A stretch of DNA of 20,000 nt from an uncultured virus (IMG/VR IMGVR_UViG_3300031994_000070) (Duplodnaviria; Heunggongvirae; Uroviricota; Caudoviricetes), in IMG/VR virus record IMGVR_UViG_3300031994_000070. One strand, 5' to 3'. Below the pieces are notes generated by a model. That model did not search any database. It saw nothing but the letters and a program-made list of their open reading frames with translations, and was not told the DNA's origin. The first letter of the stretch is position 1. Every line of letters begins with the position of its first letter. A program made the translations under genes and the position numbers. Positions 310-13,976 of this stretch are shown one piece after another.

Positions 310-891
310 TTAAAGCTGCTCTTGGCACTCTATAACTTTCTGCTCCATTTCTTCAATAATAACATCTAATAATACTGGATAGCAATTTTGAGAATCAACC
401 CCCACATGATACATAAAAGGTATGTCATTGAAGAAATTTTCGTTTTGATGTGTATGCCCATAAAGATTGCATGTACACTGTTTCAAACTCTCCTTTTGGA
501 GATTAGCGGTTAATGATGGATAATGACTTAAATAAAAATGATATTTTTTATAATGTAATACATCTGCCCATTTAACATCAATTACGTTTGTGCAGGTATT
601 ATACATCACAATTCGATTATCTGTGTCATGGTTACCAGCGATAATATGAATTTTACCATTTAATCTTTCAATGAGTTTGCGATTTGTATTCAACATCTCT
701 GGAGTACCACCGCCAAGACATACATCTCCTAAAAGATATACTATATCATCATCATGCACGACAGCATTCCAACGCTCAATGATACCCTCATTCATTTCTT
801 GGACTGATTCAAATCCACGGGGCTTGTATATAAATTCTCTATCGTGATTAAAATGTAAATCGCTTGTTACAAAAATCATACTATTCCTCAT
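310..891 (-). CDS. calcineurin-like metallophosphoesterase
   Basis: Motifs SDLH, LGD, GNHD, HYP, GHTH in canonical order; overlaps the stop of the upstream kinase. Confidence 0.9.
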   Translation of the reverse strand: MRNSMIFVTSDLHFNHDREFIYKPRGFESVQEMNEGIIERWNAVVHDDDIVYLLGDVCLGGGTPEMLNTNRKLIERLNGKIHIIAGNHDTDNRIVMYNTCTNVIDVKWADVLHYKKYHFYLSHYPSLTANLQKESLKQCTCNLYGHTHQNENFFNDIPFMYHVGVDSQNCYPVLLDVIIEEMEQKVIECQEQL

Positions 892-1354
892 TAATTACAA
901 ATACTTCATCGAATCCTTCTTCTATTGAAGGCGGTATCATTCTATTAAACATACCAGTAATCGCATATGGCGGCACGTGTTCTCTACCTGTTCTACCTTC
1001 ATTACGTTTTAATGAAGTTTCTAATGGCGTTTTAACCCAAATGGCATATACATGCTCATAGGTGCCACCTTTTCGAGCAATGGCTTTTAATAATTTATTT
1101 CTTGTGCTAGGTGTTAAATTAGTCTGGTCTGCAATAACGTGATAACCATTTAATAAATTATCACATATATCTCCTACAAATTTGCGATAAGTTTCATCTT
1201 CTTTATCAAAATAACTCTCATCATCTTTTAATAAAGAAAATCTAATCGCATCTCTTGATACCCATTTAGTTTTGGGATGCTTATCGACATAGTATTTAGC
1301 AATTGTTGATTTGCCGGACGCTGGCTGTCCGCAAATTAAATATAAATTACTCAT
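881..1354 (-). CDS. P-loop kinase, AAA_33 / polynucleotide kinase-like
   Basis: Walker A GQPASGKST, SRDAIR, ADQTNLT..R and lid RNEGR motifs typical of Pnk-type kinase domains. Confidence 0.85.
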   Translation of the reverse strand: MSNLYLICGQPASGKSTIAKYYVDKHPKTKWVSRDAIRFSLLKDDESYFDKEDETYRKFVGDICDNLLNGYHVIADQTNLTPSTRNKLLKAIARKGGTYEHVYAIWVKTPLETSLKRNEGRTGREHVPPYAITGMFNRMIPPSIEEGFDEVFVINEE

Positions 1355-1535
1355 TAGTTTTCTCCATCATTAATTTACATTTACCAGTTGGTTGTTCATC
1401 GTCATAAGCCATGCAAGATGCTCCTATGCAATCCATAAATACTTCATAATAATCTGCTATAGCACTGCCATTGCCGGCGTACTTATAATCATAAACCTTT
1501 TTTTCTTTCCTAAACGGGCATTTGTTATGTTTCAT
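1347..1535 (-). CDS. small Cys-containing hypothetical protein
   Basis: 62-aa ORF downstream of promoter 1571-1599; overlaps kinase start; CPF...CxxxxC. Confidence 0.7.
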   Translation of the reverse strand: MKHNKCPFRKEKKVYDYKYAGNGSAIADYYEVFMDCIGASCMAYDDEQPTGKCKLMMEKTNE

Positions 1536-1636: not shown

Positions 1637-1932
1637 GACCAATAAGGTCTATATATAAACTTATAAAGTAAGAAAGAATAGAATCTTTAAAAGCAATATT
1701 TTCTTTTATAGTGTTGAAAATATTGAAAACATTCACATCAGGAATATAGGAATTAATTGGGGAAAGAAAGTACCTATAATTCACTTTCTAATATAATATA
1801 TATAAAAATTTTTATAAAAGCAAATAATTTATGATATTTAGAATCATTTAATTATTGTTTGTCGACTTTTTTACACTAAAGCCTAAAAATGGCTGTTTCA
1901 TTCTACAAATACATAAATTATTTGCTAATAAA

Positions 1933-3051
1933 CTATATCTTGCGCAGATTCTTCTTATGAACTGCGGCGGTAACTGTTTTACCAACACCAATTACCACTC
2001 TATTTTTATTTACTTCAAATACGGTATATTGAGCATACCAAGCAATAAACTTTTTGCCTTCATAAGTAACTGCGTTTAATACCTTAACTTTATCGCCCGG
2101 TTTAAGGGTTTGCGCATCATCTGTTACCGATGGCTTTGGTTTCGCATATCTAATATCTTCTTCGTCCATCCAGCCAAGGCTACCAGTAGTATTGTAAGGG
2201 TGCTTTGCGCCAGGTATTGCACGGGTGATTTTAGTAGTTAATTCTTTAACTACTTTTCCAGCAGACTTGCTGGCATTTGAACTTACATATAATTCGCCTT
2301 TAATAATAACCTTATCTCCAACTTTAAACTTTAATTTGGGAGTTTCTTCTTTAGGTTCTGGCTTCGTTTCTTCTTTATCAAATCCATTATATTTGTTGTC
2401 TTTTATAAACTTGGGCATATCAACGTAGCAATAATCTTGGTCTACCGTTTTACCCGCAATTTTGTTTGACCTAATTACGTTCGTTTCACCGCCAAATTGC
2501 CATAAGTAGTTAACTGGTGAAGATGGTTTATTCTCCATCCAGGCAGCTACCCACTTGCCATATTTAGTAAGTTCAGATAAAGTCATTTTATTTCTAAACC
2601 AATTTAAATTTGCATAAATCACTGGATAATAATTTTTAGAAATTAAGTAATCACAGAATCCTTTTGCAGCGTCAGTTACCTTCTTCTTACTAGCCTTAGC
2701 TTGGTATACCGGGTCTTCTATATCAATAGCTATTGGATATTCAAACTGCTTGCCTTTTAAACAATTCTCATACATATATTTTGCTTCTGCTTGTCCAGCC
2801 TCATAGCTTGTTGCTCTACTGAACCAATAAGCGCCAACAGGCAGTTTTCTTTTAGTAGCTTCTTTATAGAATATTTCAAATTGATTATCTACTTTTTTAC
2901 TAACACCATCTTTGTCGCCGGTAAATCCTGCTCTTAATATTGCAAACTTAACTCCTTCTTTTATCGCTGTATCCCAATTTAAACCAGCCTGCCAAGTACT
3001 AACATCGATGCCAAAAACTGGTTTATCTATTTTATATTTTGAAATATTCAT
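1933..3051 (-). CDS. GH25 lysozyme/muramidase (endolysin-like) with C-terminal putative cell-wall-binding repeats
   Basis: GIDVSTWQ, FAILRAG, GAYWFS, DIED, WQF and VDQD motifs of GH25; KVGDKV / KPGDKV SH3-like C-terminal modules. Confidence 0.9.
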   Translation of the reverse strand: MNISKYKIDKPVFGIDVSTWQAGLNWDTAIKEGVKFAILRAGFTGDKDGVSKKVDNQFEIFYKEATKRKLPVGAYWFSRATSYEAGQAEAKYMYENCLKGKQFEYPIAIDIEDPVYQAKASKKKVTDAAKGFCDYLISKNYYPVIYANLNWFRNKMTLSELTKYGKWVAAWMENKPSSPVNYLWQFGGETNVIRSNKIAGKTVDQDYCYVDMPKFIKDNKYNGFDKEETKPEPKEETPKLKFKVGDKVIIKGELYVSSNASKSAGKVVKELTTKITRAIPGAKHPYNTTGSLGWMDEEDIRYAKPKPSVTDDAQTLKPGDKVKVLNAVTYEGKKFIAWYAQYTVFEVNKNRVVIGVGKTVTAAVHKKNLRKI

Positions 3052-3063
3052 TTAATTCCTCCT

Positions 3064-3321
3064 TTAAATCAGAGACCTTCCATATTTTTGAATGCTTGGA
3101 TATATAGCATTTATCATACCGTTATAATCGGATATTGATTCTAATGTTTCTTGAAGGTCTAACTCTTCTACTGGGTCATATAATGACTCATCGGCCTCTT
3201 GTTTTAATTGATTAATGTCATAACATATATCGGCCCTTTGATTTAATAAATCGACTATTTGCTTATCGATTTCTAATAATTCCTTATTTAGTTCTTCTTT
3301 TTTTGTATTTATATCTATCAT
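3064..3321 (-). CDS. chorismate mutase type II (AroQ)-like small protein, possibly degenerate
   Basis: EIDKQIVDLLNQR...QLK...LYDPVEE resembles the AroQ pattern IDxxIxxLLxxR...K...DPxRE; GAGG RBS. Confidence 0.55.
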   Translation of the reverse strand: MIDINTKKEELNKELLEIDKQIVDLLNQRADICYDINQLKQEADESLYDPVEELDLQETLESISDYNGMINAIYPSIQKYGRSLI

Positions 3322-5244: not shown

Positions 5245-5280
5245 AAAACCCCTCGGTATAACCGAGGGGTTTATTTTTTT
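5245..5280. terminator. bidirectional intrinsic terminator between convergent genes
   Basis: 12-bp stem AAACCCCTCGGT/ACCGAGGGGTTT with A- and T-tracts on either side. Confidence 0.85.
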
Positions 5281-6508
5281 AGCTATGATGTTTCATTAAA
5301 TACTCTGGAGAAACGCATTTAAAAGACCTTACTCCGTCAAAAGACCTGAACACAATTCCTTCTTTCATTTTTCCATTGATGCGAGAAGTTTCGCTATTAA
5401 CATAATCACGTAACTCCTCAATAGTATCGGGTAATGTATAATTTGTATCTAGTAATGGTACTCCTGGTAATCCATAGATAGATAAGAAGGTATGCATTGC
5501 ATTTGGATTTAAACGATGATGAGTACCATCTTTATATCCAAAAATTACATTGAAAATTGCTAATTGATGGTTATTTAAACCATAATCATTATCTTGAATA
5601 CCTTTACCATAAGTTTCACCTTGAATAGTGATATACTCATATTTAGGTTCGGTGTCTAAAATATTAGTAAGCACTTGCTCAATATGATATTTGTCGCTCA
5701 TTTCTGTATATACGTTAGTATCATAGAAACCTTTTTTAGATGGTTTATCAAATGCGATATTACGAGAGCAGACTAAATATTCATATTTAGGGGCAAATGG
5801 ATTATGATTTCTTTTTAAAGTAAAAGTGGTAGAAGTGCCATCAATTTTTTCAGTTGCCATCCAAGGTGTTTTATCTTCTAATACCCAAAGCATATTTTCC
5901 ACACGCTCTTCATCGGTTTTTTTAACCCAAGCTGGCCAACCTCTTTTATCTTTTTTACGCCCAAAGAACACGAAGAGTAATTTTTTACCCCATTTACGTT
6001 TCATTAACCAATAGAATGGTTGATGTTTAAATAATTCTTTGTGGCGTTGTGCCATAGAATAATATTTATCAACACCTCTGCCTTTACGTTTGTTATCTTC
6101 AGCCACCGCATATGTAACTCCTAACTGTTTAGTTAAGAAACGAGATTCATCGTCTAAACGGTGCGCCACGCCATCAGTATCATAAATCGCTTCTGCGTCA
6201 GCAGTCCAACCAAAATTTTCAGCAGACATTAATAAACCTTGAGATAAACTTTTGCACATTTTTTGTGTTTTGATTTTATAATGTTTGCTAACTAAAAATT
6301 CCATATTGGTAAAAGGTTCTACCTCTGGTAATTTAGAGTCAATTTCAAAATAAATTGCTAAATCATTAGGTTTAAACTCACCTTTACCAACTACAACTGT
6401 CCAGCCACCGATATGCGCCAGCTCAACCCTATCATAGTTAGGAATTGGAGTTACATTATCAATTTTAATAATATATGCTAATTGTCTTACTTGTTTAGAA
6501 TCTAACAT
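5279..6508 (-). CDS. ATP-dependent RNA ligase, Rnl2/DRB0094-like, with N-terminal OB-type domain
   Basis: Motif I TEKIDGTS, IQGETYG, EGIVF and terminal FKCVS; N-terminal IPNYDRVELAHIGGWTVVV..IYFEIDS typical of the DRB0094 family. Confidence 0.9.
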   Translation of the reverse strand: MLDSKQVRQLAYIIKIDNVTPIPNYDRVELAHIGGWTVVVGKGEFKPNDLAIYFEIDSKLPEVEPFTNMEFLVSKHYKIKTQKMCKSLSQGLLMSAENFGWTADAEAIYDTDGVAHRLDDESRFLTKQLGVTYAVAEDNKRKGRGVDKYYSMAQRHKELFKHQPFYWLMKRKWGKKLLFVFFGRKKDKRGWPAWVKKTDEERVENMLWVLEDKTPWMATEKIDGTSTTFTLKRNHNPFAPKYEYLVCSRNIAFDKPSKKGFYDTNVYTEMSDKYHIEQVLTNILDTEPKYEYITIQGETYGKGIQDNDYGLNNHQLAIFNVIFGYKDGTHHRLNPNAMHTFLSIYGLPGVPLLDTNYTLPDTIEELRDYVNSETSRINGKMKEGIVFRSFDGVRSFKCVSPEYLMKHHS

Positions 6509-10450: not shown

Positions 10451-10481
10451 AAAAAAAATAAGCCCCCTAAAAGGGGGCTTA
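10451..10481 (-). terminator. intrinsic terminator ending the ncRNA operon
   Basis: TAAGCCCC...GGGGCTTA hairpin followed by U-tract on minus strand. Confidence 0.85.
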
Positions 10482-10532: not shown

Positions 10533-10609
10533 TGGTCGGAGTAGGGGGATTTGAACCCACGACCTTCCGGTCCCAAGCCGGGCGCTCTACCAAACTGAGC
10601 TACACTCCG
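10533..10609 (-). tRNA. tRNA-Pro(UGG)
   Basis: CGGAGTG acceptor, CT-TGG-GA loop, GTTCAAATC, ACCA. Confidence 0.95.
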
Positions 10610-10695
10610 ATACGTACCCAACGGACTCGTCGTAACACCAAACCTCCGTCAGTTGTAGACTTACTACCATAAATTGGACTTCTCTTACGAGCGTG

Positions 10696-10751
10696 CAGAA
10701 TTTTTAGCATTACCCACCTCGCGCCACGTGGAGGCAAATTCTGTGCGAGGC
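10696..10751 (-). ncRNA. minimal HDV-like (theta-type) self-cleaving ribozyme
   Basis: P1 GCCTCGC/GCGAGGT (G1-U wobble), J1/2 A, P2 CAGAATTT/AAATTCTG, P3 GCC/GGC, L3 TCCACGT, P1.1 CC/GG, vestigial P4, J4/2 CTAA with catalytic C. Confidence 0.88.
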
Positions 10752-10830
10752 TGGAGATGTCGGGATTCGAACCCGAGTCCGCGACAGTTCACTTTGGATT
10801 TAAGCCACGTCGAACGCCCATCGCATCCCC
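10752..10830 (-). ncRNA. mini-tmRNA (tRNA-like domain only, no tag ORF)
   Basis: 5' GGGGATG...TTCGAC and 3' GGAC-TCGGG-TTCGAAT-CCCGA-CATCTCC-A; G3-U70 and A73 Ala identity; P2a CGTGGC/GTCGCG closed by an 18-nt loop; no encoded CCA. Confidence 0.75.
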
Positions 10831-10877
10831 GTATATCGTGACGTGGCGATTGACCACTTATCGCCACGGTTACTTAA

Positions 10878-11162
10878 TTAAATAAGAATGTCAAAAAACG
10901 GAAAATAGGGCTTTTTGACACTATCTGACCATGACATATGGAATGAGCCATAGTCTTTTGTAAAAGCATTAAGAAGCTCATAAGCATGTGCCTGAGCCTG
11001 TTCGACGGCTTTAAAGGCATCTTCTACCTCTTTGGCTCTTGCACTTCTCTGCTCTTTAAGTTTCTCTTTTTCTTTTCTGGCCTCAACAACCGCCTTTTCA
11101 GCTGCCTTGAGAGCCTCTTCAGTGTCATAAAGTTTTTTTGTTTCGTCGCTATAATACTTCAT
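10878..11162 (-). CDS. hypothetical coiled-coil protein
   Basis: 94-aa ORF, AAGGA RBS, Ala/Glu/Lys-rich helix. Confidence 0.8.
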   Translation of the reverse strand: MKYYSDETKKLYDTEEALKAAEKAVVEARKEKEKLKEQRSARAKEVEDAFKAVEQAQAHAYELLNAFTKDYGSFHMSWSDSVKKPYFPFFDILI

Positions 11163-11251
11163 AAATATCGTCCTTTCGTTATTTATTGTTAAGTTCCTGC
11201 ACTTAACTAAAGTTAGCTATATATAAACTACGTGGTCGATAGTTGATATAC

Positions 11252-11328
11252 TGGTGCGTCCAAGAGGATTCGAACCTCCACTCTTGGGTTTCGTAGACCC
11301 CTACTTTATCCAGTTAAGCTATAGACGC
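11252..11328 (-). tRNA. tRNA-Arg(ACG)
   Basis: GCGTCTA/TGGACGC acceptor, CT-ACG-AA loop, GGTTCGAATCC, ACCA. Confidence 0.92.
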
Positions 11329-11333
11329 ATAAA

Positions 11334-11943
11334 ATTGAGAGAACCATTGTATATTTAAAATTGAGCCTTCGCCCTACCTCAGTTACCTTCAGTTATGGTC
11401 TGTCAATGGGGAGATTAGCGCGTGTACGGAGTAGCTAATTCCGTCCAACTAACCCCAGGCCGCCCTCGCCCGAAATCCCATGAGAGATTGATTACTCCCG
11501 CCTTTCACCTACCGTTCGCATATTTACGTGTTCTTGTACCCTATATAAGAACGGAATCTGTCCAATCAACGTGCCGCGTTAAGCTACTTGGATGTGCGTG
11601 CGAGGTCTCATAGTAGGTCATTTCTCCTACGTCTCGGCACAAACGATTTGTTAGCATTTCCAAGGTTTGACTAGTTTGCTACGCTAACCCTAACTTGGAT
11701 TCTTCCCCACAGGGGCGTCTATTGCATCGTCGACTTCACGCACTACATTTAACTGCGATAACTGACAGCGCTGCCACTTCAGGTACGTCCTATTCAGGAC
11801 TCCTTTTAATAGGTCGCCCTATTAAAAACGACTTCTTTTCAAAGTATCCTTATCAATCCATCGTCTGCTCCGCAACACCTCAGCATAACTGGTTTAGTTA
11901 CTCTGCACTGAGTTAATATTAAATACACAATGCTTCTCTCAAT
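11334..11943 (-). ncRNA. large structured ncRNA (~610 nt), ROOL-like candidate
   Basis: 29-nt terminal inverted repeat (26/29 identity), many internal helices, GC-richer, no credible ORF, strong promoter upstream, tRNA 5 nt downstream; family name inferred from size and context only. Confidence 0.7.
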
Positions 11944-11969
11944 ATTTATTTGTCATTCTTTATATATAT

Positions 11970-11998
11970 ATTATAGCAAAAATTTTTAAAATAGTCAA
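11970..11998 (-). promoter_or_regulatory. strong sigmaA promoter of the ncRNA operon
   Basis: TTGACT-17-TATAAT with TG extension. Confidence 0.85.
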
Positions 11999-12001
11999 AT
12001 T

Positions 12002-12190
12002 TTATAACATTTTTGCGACTTCTTCGATACCGGGGGCCAGTAATTCATAAGACCGTACCGATTCATCGCGTAAAAGGCACGTTCCATGTGCTACGTCGGC
12101 AAATTTACAATCAGTACAATTTGTAAATTTGTGGCAATACATTTTTAATAGTAAGATAGTATTAAATATGTCAAACTGTTTGTCATTCAT
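12002..12190 (-). CDS. small Cys-rich hypothetical protein
   Basis: C..C..C...C pattern (CHKFTNCTDCKF..C); GGAG RBS favours ATG 12190. Confidence 0.65.
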   Translation of the reverse strand: MNDKQFDIFNTILLLKMYCHKFTNCTDCKFADVAHGTCLLRDESVRSYELLAPGIEEVAKML

Positions 12191-12371
12191 GTTTGCCATC
12201 TCCCTTCTTGGAAAATATAGGGGGTTTCCAGTCTACAGCCGCACCCCCACGAGCGGTCATGGTATATCGTAAACCATGATTGACGAGCGAATTCACGCTT
12301 GTTAGGTTTGAAGTTTTCCTTCTTCTTACATCTATCCGGTGGCGATTCTCTTTTGGCCGGTGATTTGTCAT
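12183..12371 (-). CDS. possible small basic protein
   Basis: 62-aa ORF with GAGG upstream that fills the gap between genes; ends at TGA, so its end is uncertain if TGA=Trp; region could alternatively be structured RNA. Confidence 0.4.
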   Translation of the reverse strand: MTNHRPKENRHRIDVRRRKTSNLTSVNSLVNHGLRYTMTARGGAAVDWKPPIFSKKGDGKHE

Positions 12372-12378
12372 CTCGCCT

Positions 12379-12549
12379 CTAAGCCTTTACAATATATCGA
12401 ATATATTTCTGTCCATTTTCGGTATACTCTTCAGCTTCGCAAATTTCTTGCAGATGTAAAGATTTCTTTATTTGAGTGAGATTAGCGGTTGGTTGTCCAT
12501 TCAAATAAAGAATAGGTTCATTGTCATCAAAAACTGTAATATACTTCAT
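12379..12549 (-). CDS. hypothetical protein (56 aa)
   Basis: GAGGA RBS; MKYITVFDDNEPILYLNGQPTANLTQIKKSLHLQEICEAEEYTENGQKYIRYIVKA; TAG stop. Confidence 0.65.
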   Translation of the reverse strand: MKYITVFDDNEPILYLNGQPTANLTQIKKSLHLQEICEAEEYTENGQKYIRYIVKA

Positions 12550-12560
12550 TTTTCCTCTGT

Positions 12561-13469
12561 TTATTTATTTAAAAATCTCTGGAACGCACTTGCAGTGTTT
12601 GGACCAAAATATCCGTCTGCAGTGCCAGCATTACATCCTTTTGCATTTAAGAACTTTTGTAATGCTATAACAGTTTGTTTTCCGCAAAGTCCATCAATCT
12701 CTCCTGGGTTGTAACCGTTCTTTTTCAGATACCTTTGAAGTCTATCTACTGTAGTAGAACCAGTATAACCGTCATTGTATCTTACAGTTGTCCAACGAGA
12801 TAAGTAAGGACGTACTGTTGAAGTTTGTCCGCCAATCCATCCATCAGGTGTAAGACCAAGGAAACCTTGGAGTCTTCTTGTTGAAAGTTCACCAAAATAT
12901 CCGTCTACAGTTAATTTAGATGGAGTTGTAGTAGTTGTTGTTGAAGTAGATGAGCCACCTGAAGATGAAGCACCTAATTGCTTATTAACTTCAGCAGCGA
13001 TATAAGGGAATTTAGAATACAGATAGTTGCCAGGGCATGTGGTTGCCATAAACATTCTATGGGCGGTTAAGTTGCCACTTGTAGTGCCGTTAAAAACTAA
13101 CTTTTTAATTCCATTTCTCTTGCAAATATCAACAACAAGTCTAATACAAGAAGCAAGTGCTTTATCACTTACGTGCCAGTTACCACCGATTTGGTCATTG
13201 GCAACCTCAATGGTTACTGAGCGTTGGTTGCTTGCAAAATTACCGTTTGTTCATGCAGCATATGCTTCACTAACATATTGGCCAATTCTGCCATCGCTAC
13301 CTACGCCATAGTGAGCAGAAGCTTCTCTTGAACGAAATACGCTGCCGCAAGTTTCTACACTAAGATTTCCAGCCATATGGTGAATGGTAATGTCTGTGAT
13401 TTTCTTGCCACCGCGATAGCTTCAATTGGGAGACCAAGCGGTATAGTTTACTAAAGTTGAATTGCTCAT
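12561..13469 (-). CDS. N-acetylmuramoyl-L-alanine amidase (Amidase_2) endolysin with PG-binding repeats, 302 aa with TGA=Trp
   Basis: GGAGG RBS, ATG 13469; ITIHHMAG, ASAHY, TIEVAN, HRMF..TTCPG Zn motifs; TGA at 13422-13424 and 13251-13253 (YAA*TNG, conserved AW position); S/T linker; DG.FG..T...LQ repeats. Confidence 0.92.
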
Positions 13470-13830: not shown

Positions 13831-13976
13831 TGGCGCCTCGAGTAGGATTCGAACCTACAACCTATCGGTTATGGAGCCAGAGGTGAGTTACGTTCCTCAC
13901 ACCTTGGGAGCGACCCAATGCACTACTTTATACGACTCTGACACAGCCGATTGCTCTACCGTTGAGCTATCGAGGC
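13831..13976 (-). tRNA. tRNA-Asn(GUU) interrupted by a 71-nt tRNA-shaped insert
   Basis: 5' exon 13976-13943 (GCCTCGA...ATCGG-CT-GT) plus 3' exon 13871-13831 (T-AA-CCGAT...TCGAGGC-G-CCA) join into a perfect 75-nt tRNA-Asn with G73. Confidence 0.88.
13872..13942 (-). ncRNA. tRNA-like intervening element
   Basis: Acceptor GTCAGAG/CTCTGGC+T+CCA, D-like GTAT/GTGC, TTGGG/CCCAA arm, T-like GTGAG/CTCAC; loops non-canonical. Confidence 0.8.

Follow-up and report, generated by a model that had tools for sequence, protein, structure and literature searches.

A divergent ROOL RNA gene beside the tRNA genes of an uncultured tailed phage

Introduction

ROOL is among the few natural RNAs known to form a closed cage without protein. 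The family (RF03087) was described by Weinberg et al. in 2017 (PMC5737381), and cage formation is documented by cryo-EM, mass photometry and light scattering (PMC12286853, PMC12990946, PMC12515178). The ROOL env-120 from cow rumen was seen by cryo-EM as a D4 octameric, hollow and protein-free cage (PMC12286853). Solved structures also exist for the ROOLs of E. faecalis and L. salivarius (PMC12990946, PMC12515178), the latter reported in a review as a hexamer with an ultrashort apical stem (PMC12990946).

Two contacts between neighboring chains of these cages matter for the present work. Bridge B4, which is conserved, base-pairs junction J6/8 with loop L8 of the next chain, and bridge B6 arises from L18 as a symmetric kissing loop (PMC12286853); at the place equivalent to L18, the E. 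faecalis RNA has, according to the same review, a 4-bp kissing loop (PMC12990946). The complementarity of L8 and the junction was called a pseudoknot in 2017 and is the intermolecular bridge B4 in the cage. The variable linker of ROOL is disordered and faces the interior in the solved cages (PMC12286853). L. salivarius ROOL is reported to be abundant yet non-essential (PMC12286853, citing Cousin et al. 2017). According to a commentary (PMC12515178), Ling et al. found that 3' fusions, a tRNA precursor among them, leave the octamer undisturbed.

An RNA of similar kind is GOLLD (RF02032), likewise a large ornate phage RNA that lies by tRNAs and forms a cage of RNA only (PMC12286853). Its sequence and fold are unrelated to those of ROOL, and it assembles as a 14-mer and not as an 8-mer.

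Results

The 20,000-nt stretch of DNA analysed here (the window) carries at 11331..11946, on the minus strand, an element that we identify, with a probability of roughly 0.93, as a ROOL RNA gene (RF03087) in the tRNA island of an uncultured tailed phage of the ruminant gut. A covariance-model scan with Rfam matches ROOL at 11936..11344, on the minus strand only, with 286.6 bits against a gathering score (GA) of 99.1 and an E value of 3.5e-65. The match covers positions 1-574 of the 574 in the model, is not truncated and has a reported bias of 0.3 bits. Extension by the terminal helix gives the span 11946..11331, so that the gene measures 593 nt by Rfam and 616 nt with the full closing helix, close to the 581 nt that ROOLs average (PMC5737381).

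A permissive Rfam rescan at E <= 0.1 finds no family besides ROOL over 11331-11946, which excludes the GOLLD, OLE, RNase P and group I/II intron models. GOLLD has no match in the window as a whole, either at its gathering score or at E <= 0.1. The sequence-only reading that drew attention to the element had called it ROOL-like or a new class and had proposed a scan against these same models; given the full-length match at 286.6 bits, the ROOL branch of that reading is right and the new-class branch falls.

The gene is bounded by an inverted repeat whose 32-nt arms, 11331-11362 and 11915-11946, are 88% complementary and lie 552 nt apart. On the minus strand these arms form the closing helix P1 (5' arm 11915..11946, 3' arm 11331..11362), with 28 Watson-Crick pairs, 1 G-U pair and 3 mismatches. 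The 29-bp closing stem proposed from the letters is real and slightly longer. Its strand was called correctly as well: the single G-U pair, the covariance-model match on the minus strand only and the fold energies all agree, the minus strand folding at -191.6 kcal/mol (z -4.47) and the plus strand at -157.7 kcal/mol (z -3.42), each with 0/20 shuffles as good.

When the 593-nt match is given the family's consensus structure, via the alignment of the Rfam scan, 132 of 156 pairs come out canonical and 24 of 156 non-canonical as aligned. By reading, a shift of register by 1 nt perfects two badly scored inner helices, 182-187/542-547 and 190-192/534-536. Four of the five local hairpins listed earlier are consensus helices, namely TTTTAATAGG/CCTATTAAAA, with 10/10 pairs in agreement, and GTCCT/AGGAC, GTAGG/CCTAC and ACGGA/TCCGT, with 5/5 pairs each. 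The fifth, GTTCTT/AAGAAC, lies outside the consensus (0/6 pairs). It sits in the variable linker of ROOL, here about 66 nt long (11513..11578, minus strand), which is unpaired in the family model and contains 12 inserted bases.

The nested long-range pairs of the earlier reading fare differently from these four hairpins. The words CTCAGT/ACTGAG, CAGTTATG/CATAACTG and CTGTCA/TGACAG do exist, with 0/6, 0/8 and 0/6 consensus pairs, respectively. They are complementary because AACUGA/UCAGUU recurs several times in the RNA; the consensus gives these segments other partners, and we reject the three pairs as family structure. We likewise rejected energy folding as a way to the true structure. Of the 132 canonical consensus pairs, just 58 appear in the unconstrained minimum-energy structure, and enforcing the consensus costs energy (-104.9 versus -175.7 kcal/mol free). 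The family model and covariation were used instead.

The conserved core, CAAUAGACG followed by AAnAAUCC, lies at 11726..11699 on the minus strand and aligns to upper-case positions of the consensus. After CAAUAGACG comes an apical hairpin, CCCCUGUGGGG, with 4 bp and a 3-nt loop (11705..11715, minus strand), whose position suggests that it corresponds to P7 of Kretsch et al. Of the other 20 ROOLs aligned, 12 have a hairpin of equal length here, and the same 4 bp and 3-nt loop recur in a member from an Enterococcus phage (L051).

Relatives were collected from viral contigs by a motif of the conserved core, which fetched 118 stretches. A ROOL profile built here matches 43 of them; the remaining 75 have no match to the profile, look like chance pattern matches and were excluded from all counts. 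Rfam finds ROOL in 18/20, 10/10 and 12/12 scanned relative loci (40/42 in total), the last 12 coming from metagenome contigs. The window and 20 full-length relatives were aligned with plain MAFFT (alignment A1), leaving out the truncated loci L088, L091, L101, L106, L109 and L113 and the near-duplicates L069 and L043. Invariance of the core CAAUAGACG motif in A1 is by construction, since the loci were fetched with it.

The helices of the ROOL consensus covary among these relatives, well above both controls. Across the 21 sequences, 67.1% of 3214 cells are paired versus 53.8% after shuffling, and 0/500 shuffles reach 67.1%. Both sides have changed in 123 of 161 pairs, and the covariation score is 0.383, compared with 0.174 for shuffled alignments and 0.10-0.21 for pairings displaced by 1-3 columns. 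The tested structure was taken from the row of the window, which somewhat favors covariation; the result is nonetheless secure, given how wide the margin over the controls is and how frequent double changes are. Covariation among homologs, another of the checks that had been proposed, is thus seen.

Within this family the copy in the window is divergent. Its identity to the nearest aligned relatives is about 53%, and its family score lies near the bottom, with just 3 full-length relatives lower (range 245-406 bits). A blastn search with it against 50,697 phage records returns only a stretch of 72 nt, which is 78% identical and recurs in 30 records of Enterococcus phages. The window as a whole has no close cultured relatives, its only matches to phages being two of tRNA size; its RNA ligase and sigma factor attain identities of at most 30% and 43%, respectively, and no relative of the sigma factor was found in viral_contigs. 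Three metagenome contigs contain the locus of the window at 99.8-100% identity over 1850-1901 bases.

The two base-paired chain-to-chain contacts described above can be located in this copy. The L8 loop word UAGCA (11677..11681) and the junction word UGCUA (11652..11656), on the minus strand, are the two partners of B4 and pair at 5/5 positions. In A1 the contact (helix 20) is paired in 83.8% of cells and shows both-side changes in 3/5 pairs, with two positions split between sequences (AU:10/GC:10 and CG:8/GC:8). Column pair 298/327 is G-C in 16 of the 21 sequences and A-U in the window alone, a compensated double change that makes its B4 read UAGCA/UGCUA where the commonest version is UGGCA/UGCCA. 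Locus L109, which is outside A1, has the same variant as the window.

The long hairpin of the 3' domain ends in a 9-nt tip loop that holds UAGCUA (11432..11437, minus strand). The order of helices identifies this loop as the probable L18, and its position makes it the candidate partner in B6. UAGCUA is self-complementary, with AGCU at its core. Elsewhere in A1 the loop is a 5-nt U(A/C)GCU in 19 of the other 20 sequences, L009 being the exception. Since the loop, with its 6-nt palindrome, has 9 nt here in place of the usual 5, the B6 contact may differ.

Upstream of the gene, at 11998..11970 on the minus strand, lies a sigma-70-type promoter, TTGACT-17-TGcTATAAT, with 11/12 matching positions and a TG-extended -10 element. 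Its 29-mer is unique in the window, where it is one of six promoter sites of at least 11/12, all on the minus strand. Spacing places the likely start of transcription at about 11960-11964, some 17 nt before the closing helix. Downstream, a tRNA-Arg (ACG) at 11252..11328 on the minus strand (ARAGORN; RF00005, 60.1 bits) begins 2 nt past the end of the stem (11331) and 15 nt past the end of the Rfam match (11344). The dedicated strong promoter and the abutting tRNA-Arg claimed beforehand are therefore both present. Overall, the sequence-only reading stands for stem, strand, promoter, tRNA and four of five hairpins, and fails for the fifth hairpin and the three long-range pairs.

In the DNA run considered below, the promoter region at 11956-12004 also has matches of about 90% to pieces of several other contigs, and the summed depth of that bin is 579 against 32.8 in its flanks. 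This suggests that promoter-type sequence of this sort is common to other phage loci in the sample.

No terminator-like site occurs on the minus strand in 10800-12600, and so none separates ROOL from tRNA-Arg; read-through from the one into the other is the expectation. Further along on the same strand are a small ORF of 94 aa without a family match (10878..11162), which is likely part of the same transcription unit, and a tRNA-Pro (UGG; 10533..10609, ARAGORN), the last gene ahead of a hairpin of 10 pairs followed by a T run (10459..10481). This intrinsic-terminator-like hairpin is the first such minus-strand site downstream of the ROOL promoter.

The gene stands in a tRNA island, with 12 tRNAs in the window by ARAGORN and 13 by Rfam, all on the minus strand. 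Neighboring genes are those of a tailed phage and encode a GH25 endolysin, a sigma factor, PhoH, an RNA ligase, a polynucleotide kinase, a phosphoesterase and a peptidoglycan-binding protein. That ROOL occurs beside tRNAs in phages, as had been stated in advance, is true here and in the relatives: in 34 of the 40 ROOL loci, at least one flank carries a tRNA on the same strand and no more than 40 nt away (by reading, with many near-duplicates among the loci), and these tRNAs often abut or overlap the ends of the match. Most relatives have a tRNA upstream (again by reading), whereas the window copy has its own promoter directly upstream.

Among the runs listed, 20 runs from 12 studies contain the stretch; they are metagenomes from sheep, goat and other guts, six of them RNA runs. 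Contig cover was examined in three RNA runs (three studies) and one DNA run. All three RNA runs have contigs classed as wholly within ROOL (11304-11912, 11366-11918 and 11363-11918), and a contig of the DNA run spans the whole stretch. RNA-library contigs also cover the 94-aa ORF, at 10873-11329 (X14) and 10862-11207 (X18), one of which ends at 11329, beside the 5' end of tRNA-Arg. The ROOL contigs of two studies end alike, at 11363/11366 and 11918, just inside the closing helix and with no loose end listed, which is a weak hint; ends of this sort would fit trimming of the RNase III type. The X6 contig enters tRNA-Arg by 25 nt, under the 31 nt required to count as bridging.

Contigs reveal presence and neither strand, ends nor level, and RNA libraries can hold DNA, so these data hint at transcription of ROOL. 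Several bins flanking the gene are uncovered in the three RNA runs, which is no sign of silence; the DNA run covers 30/30 bins. Contig depths of 60.6, 42.4 and 16.4 over ROOL, versus 3.5-10.9 for contigs of upstream ORFs, are compatible with a promoter at 11998, yet we do not count them as evidence, as per-contig depth cannot rank genes. At 11658-11728 the conserved core is also matched by fragments of other contigs, so the same samples contain further ROOLs. A joint from 11728 to 11963 in the DNA run, with 23 letters on its shorter side, was set aside as probably belonging to another organism.

Discussion

The ROOL family is already known and its structure solved; the copy described here is a divergent and apparently expressed member, not a new class. 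With its family it shares a full-length match to the model, the same helices, the CAAUAGACG...AAUCC core, the variable internal linker, the kissing contact of L8 with the junction and, in L18, a GC-centred self-complementary loop. It also shares with the founding members the phage and tRNA-island setting and the ruminant-gut origin. What distinguishes it from other ROOLs is its low identity to the nearest relatives found, the long closing helix and the variant contact words.

The reading that survives best beside this one is that the copy has decayed and lost its function. Its lowish family score, its 24 non-canonical consensus pairs and its enlarged L18 loop are what decay could leave behind. 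A register shift of 1 nt, however, removes part of the mispairing, the strong promoter is intact, and the quaternary contact B4 has been maintained through a double change; the three metagenome contigs carry the locus almost unaltered, and the RNA libraries of three studies contain it. We consider decay improbable.

Fainter still is the prospect of a new ornate RNA class that resembles ROOL only in size and setting. Identity of only about 53% to the nearest ROOLs and a single 72-nt blastn stretch among the phage records would be expected of such a class; a full-length covariance-model match at nearly three times the gathering score would not, nor would compensatory changes that preserve the family helices and B4. 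We give just as little credence to a miniature inverted-repeat mobile element (MITE), in which the long, 88% complementary 32-nt arms would be terminal inverted repeats. The sequence-only reading had named target-site duplications and dispersed copies as the marks of a MITE. Instead, the element is single within the window, and the 10 bases outside its arms, atagacgcat and ttatttgtca, differ and reveal no target-site duplication. Moreover, the arms are the family helix P1, which covaries in relatives (helix 1, 13/15 pairs changed on both sides), and the interior conserves RNA structure. Protein coding on the plus strand is equally remote, because the two ORFs that appear there in the ORF list (11422-11613, 63 aa, GTG start; 11695-11916, 73 aa, TTG start) both lack an ATG start and any Pfam match at E <= 0.01 and run opposite to nearly all neighboring genes, and the RNA model on the other strand accounts for the region base for base.

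For the ROOL RNA, then, transcription would begin at its own sigma-70-type promoter and continue through tRNA-Arg, the 94-aa ORF, a mini-tmRNA-like element (described below) and tRNA-Pro to the terminator at 10481..10459. RNase P, cutting where tRNA-Arg begins 2 nt behind the helix, would free the 3' end of ROOL. The ends of the RNA are thus plausibly set by tRNA-processing enzymes, with RNase P acting at the 3' side here. The arrangement is reminiscent of rRNA-type processing stems and tRNA-punctuated transcripts. In rRNA-type processing stems a long helix joins the ends of a large RNA whose transcript is shared with tRNAs. The P1 of ROOL is unlike these stems in that it belongs to the folded RNA in the solved structures.

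From the retention of B4 and L18 contacts, we infer that the RNA can form a cage, probably an octamer. By analogy with its solved relatives, it would fold flat and self-assemble without protein into a hollow dihedral cage, most likely with eight chains like those of env-120 and E. faecalis; a hexamer as in L. salivarius is less likely.

What such a cage might do can be put forward only tentatively. A role tied to the supply of phage tRNAs in infection, through holding, presenting or shielding tRNAs or their precursors, is conceivable, at odds well short of even. With only 2 nt between the closing helix and tRNA-Arg, a more elaborate version, which we regard as distinctly doubtful, would have the primary transcript form a cage with eight radially displayed tRNA precursors. 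Such a particle might serve as a scaffold or timer of tRNA maturation, or as a shield or decoy against host tRNA-cutting defenses, alongside the RNA ligase, polynucleotide kinase and phosphoesterase of the island. If true, the shield or decoy would protect phage tRNAs against these defenses.

The window copy is no new kind of RNA; its value is that of a clean natural example. It has a strong promoter of its own, a tRNA almost directly fused at its 3' end and variant chain-to-chain contacts (the compensated A-U in B4 and the 6-nt palindrome in L18). Its presence in gut samples of sheep and goats for which metatranscriptomes exist too makes it suitable for studying how the ends of ROOL form in vivo, and for asking whether contact variants prevent co-assembly of the ROOLs of one community.

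Several further features of the window and of the relatives were observed. One metagenome contig (L123:852-2297) has GOLLD (RF02032) at 2297..1830, with 173 bits against a GA of 150, and ROOL at 1441..852, the two sharing a strand and a tRNA array and being separated by a tRNA. RAGATH-21 motifs occur a few hundred bases from ROOL at L071:1175-1251 (86.9 bits) and L079:196-284 (80 bits; GA 70.3).

By the tRNA island, at 310-1354 and 5279-6508 on the minus strand, the window encodes an RNA-repair set consisting of a metallophosphoesterase, a polynucleotide kinase-like P-loop protein and an RNA ligase. Such a set would suit the mending of cut tRNAs or of cyclic-phosphate ends made by ribozymes. 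Its RNA ligase was not found in 5/5 ROOL-bearing phage contigs, two of them at least 90% complete, in a search run without a positive control; on this account RNA repair as a family-wide neighbor of ROOL was dropped. An 85-aa ORF at 3064-3321, minus strand, matches chorismate mutase type II (PF01817, E 1.3e-09), which is unusual for a phage.

The mini-tmRNA-like element (10749-10830, minus strand, 82 nt) comprises only the tRNA-like domain of tmRNA, with an acceptor stem that includes a G3-U pair, a T arm and UUCGACG. In it 14 nt replace the mRNA-like part of about 308 nt, and there is no tag reading frame. It scores 48.1 bits against a GA of 47 in one Rfam scan and 39.6 bits in another. A copy at L119:1538-1619, on a different ROOL-bearing contig, scores 50.4 bits; it keeps the fold with 7/23 pairs changed on both sides and has an encoded CCA end.

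Directly behind the mini-tmRNA lies a weak match to an HDV-like ribozyme (10695-10751, minus strand; RF02682, 27.1 bits, below the GA of 44, E 0.0027). We take its parts to be, by the usual motif names, a 7-bp P1 starting with G-U, an 8-bp P2, a 3-bp P3, GG for P1.1 and GCUAA. Cleavage at the 5' end of this element would leave a tRNA-like RNA that ends at the discriminator A. In a related phage (DNA run X5), 777 other letters stand in place of 10671-10750. The match resembles theta ribozymes, which were found beside phage tRNAs (PMC10879173), in a paper whose text leaves tmRNA unmentioned.

At 13834-13976 on the minus strand, Rfam detects a tRNA (RF00005, 59.5 bits) that ARAGORN does not call and that carries a structured insert of about 74 nt in its anticodon loop. 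With the insert taken out, the loop reads CU-CAU-AA, that is, a CAU anticodon; the whole 143 nt fold with a z of -3.31. The insert is presumably too short for a group I intron. The mini-tmRNA with its HDV-like ribozyme and the insert-bearing tRNA may be more novel than the ROOL copy itself. Six ROOL relative loci contain tRNAs of 119 nt.
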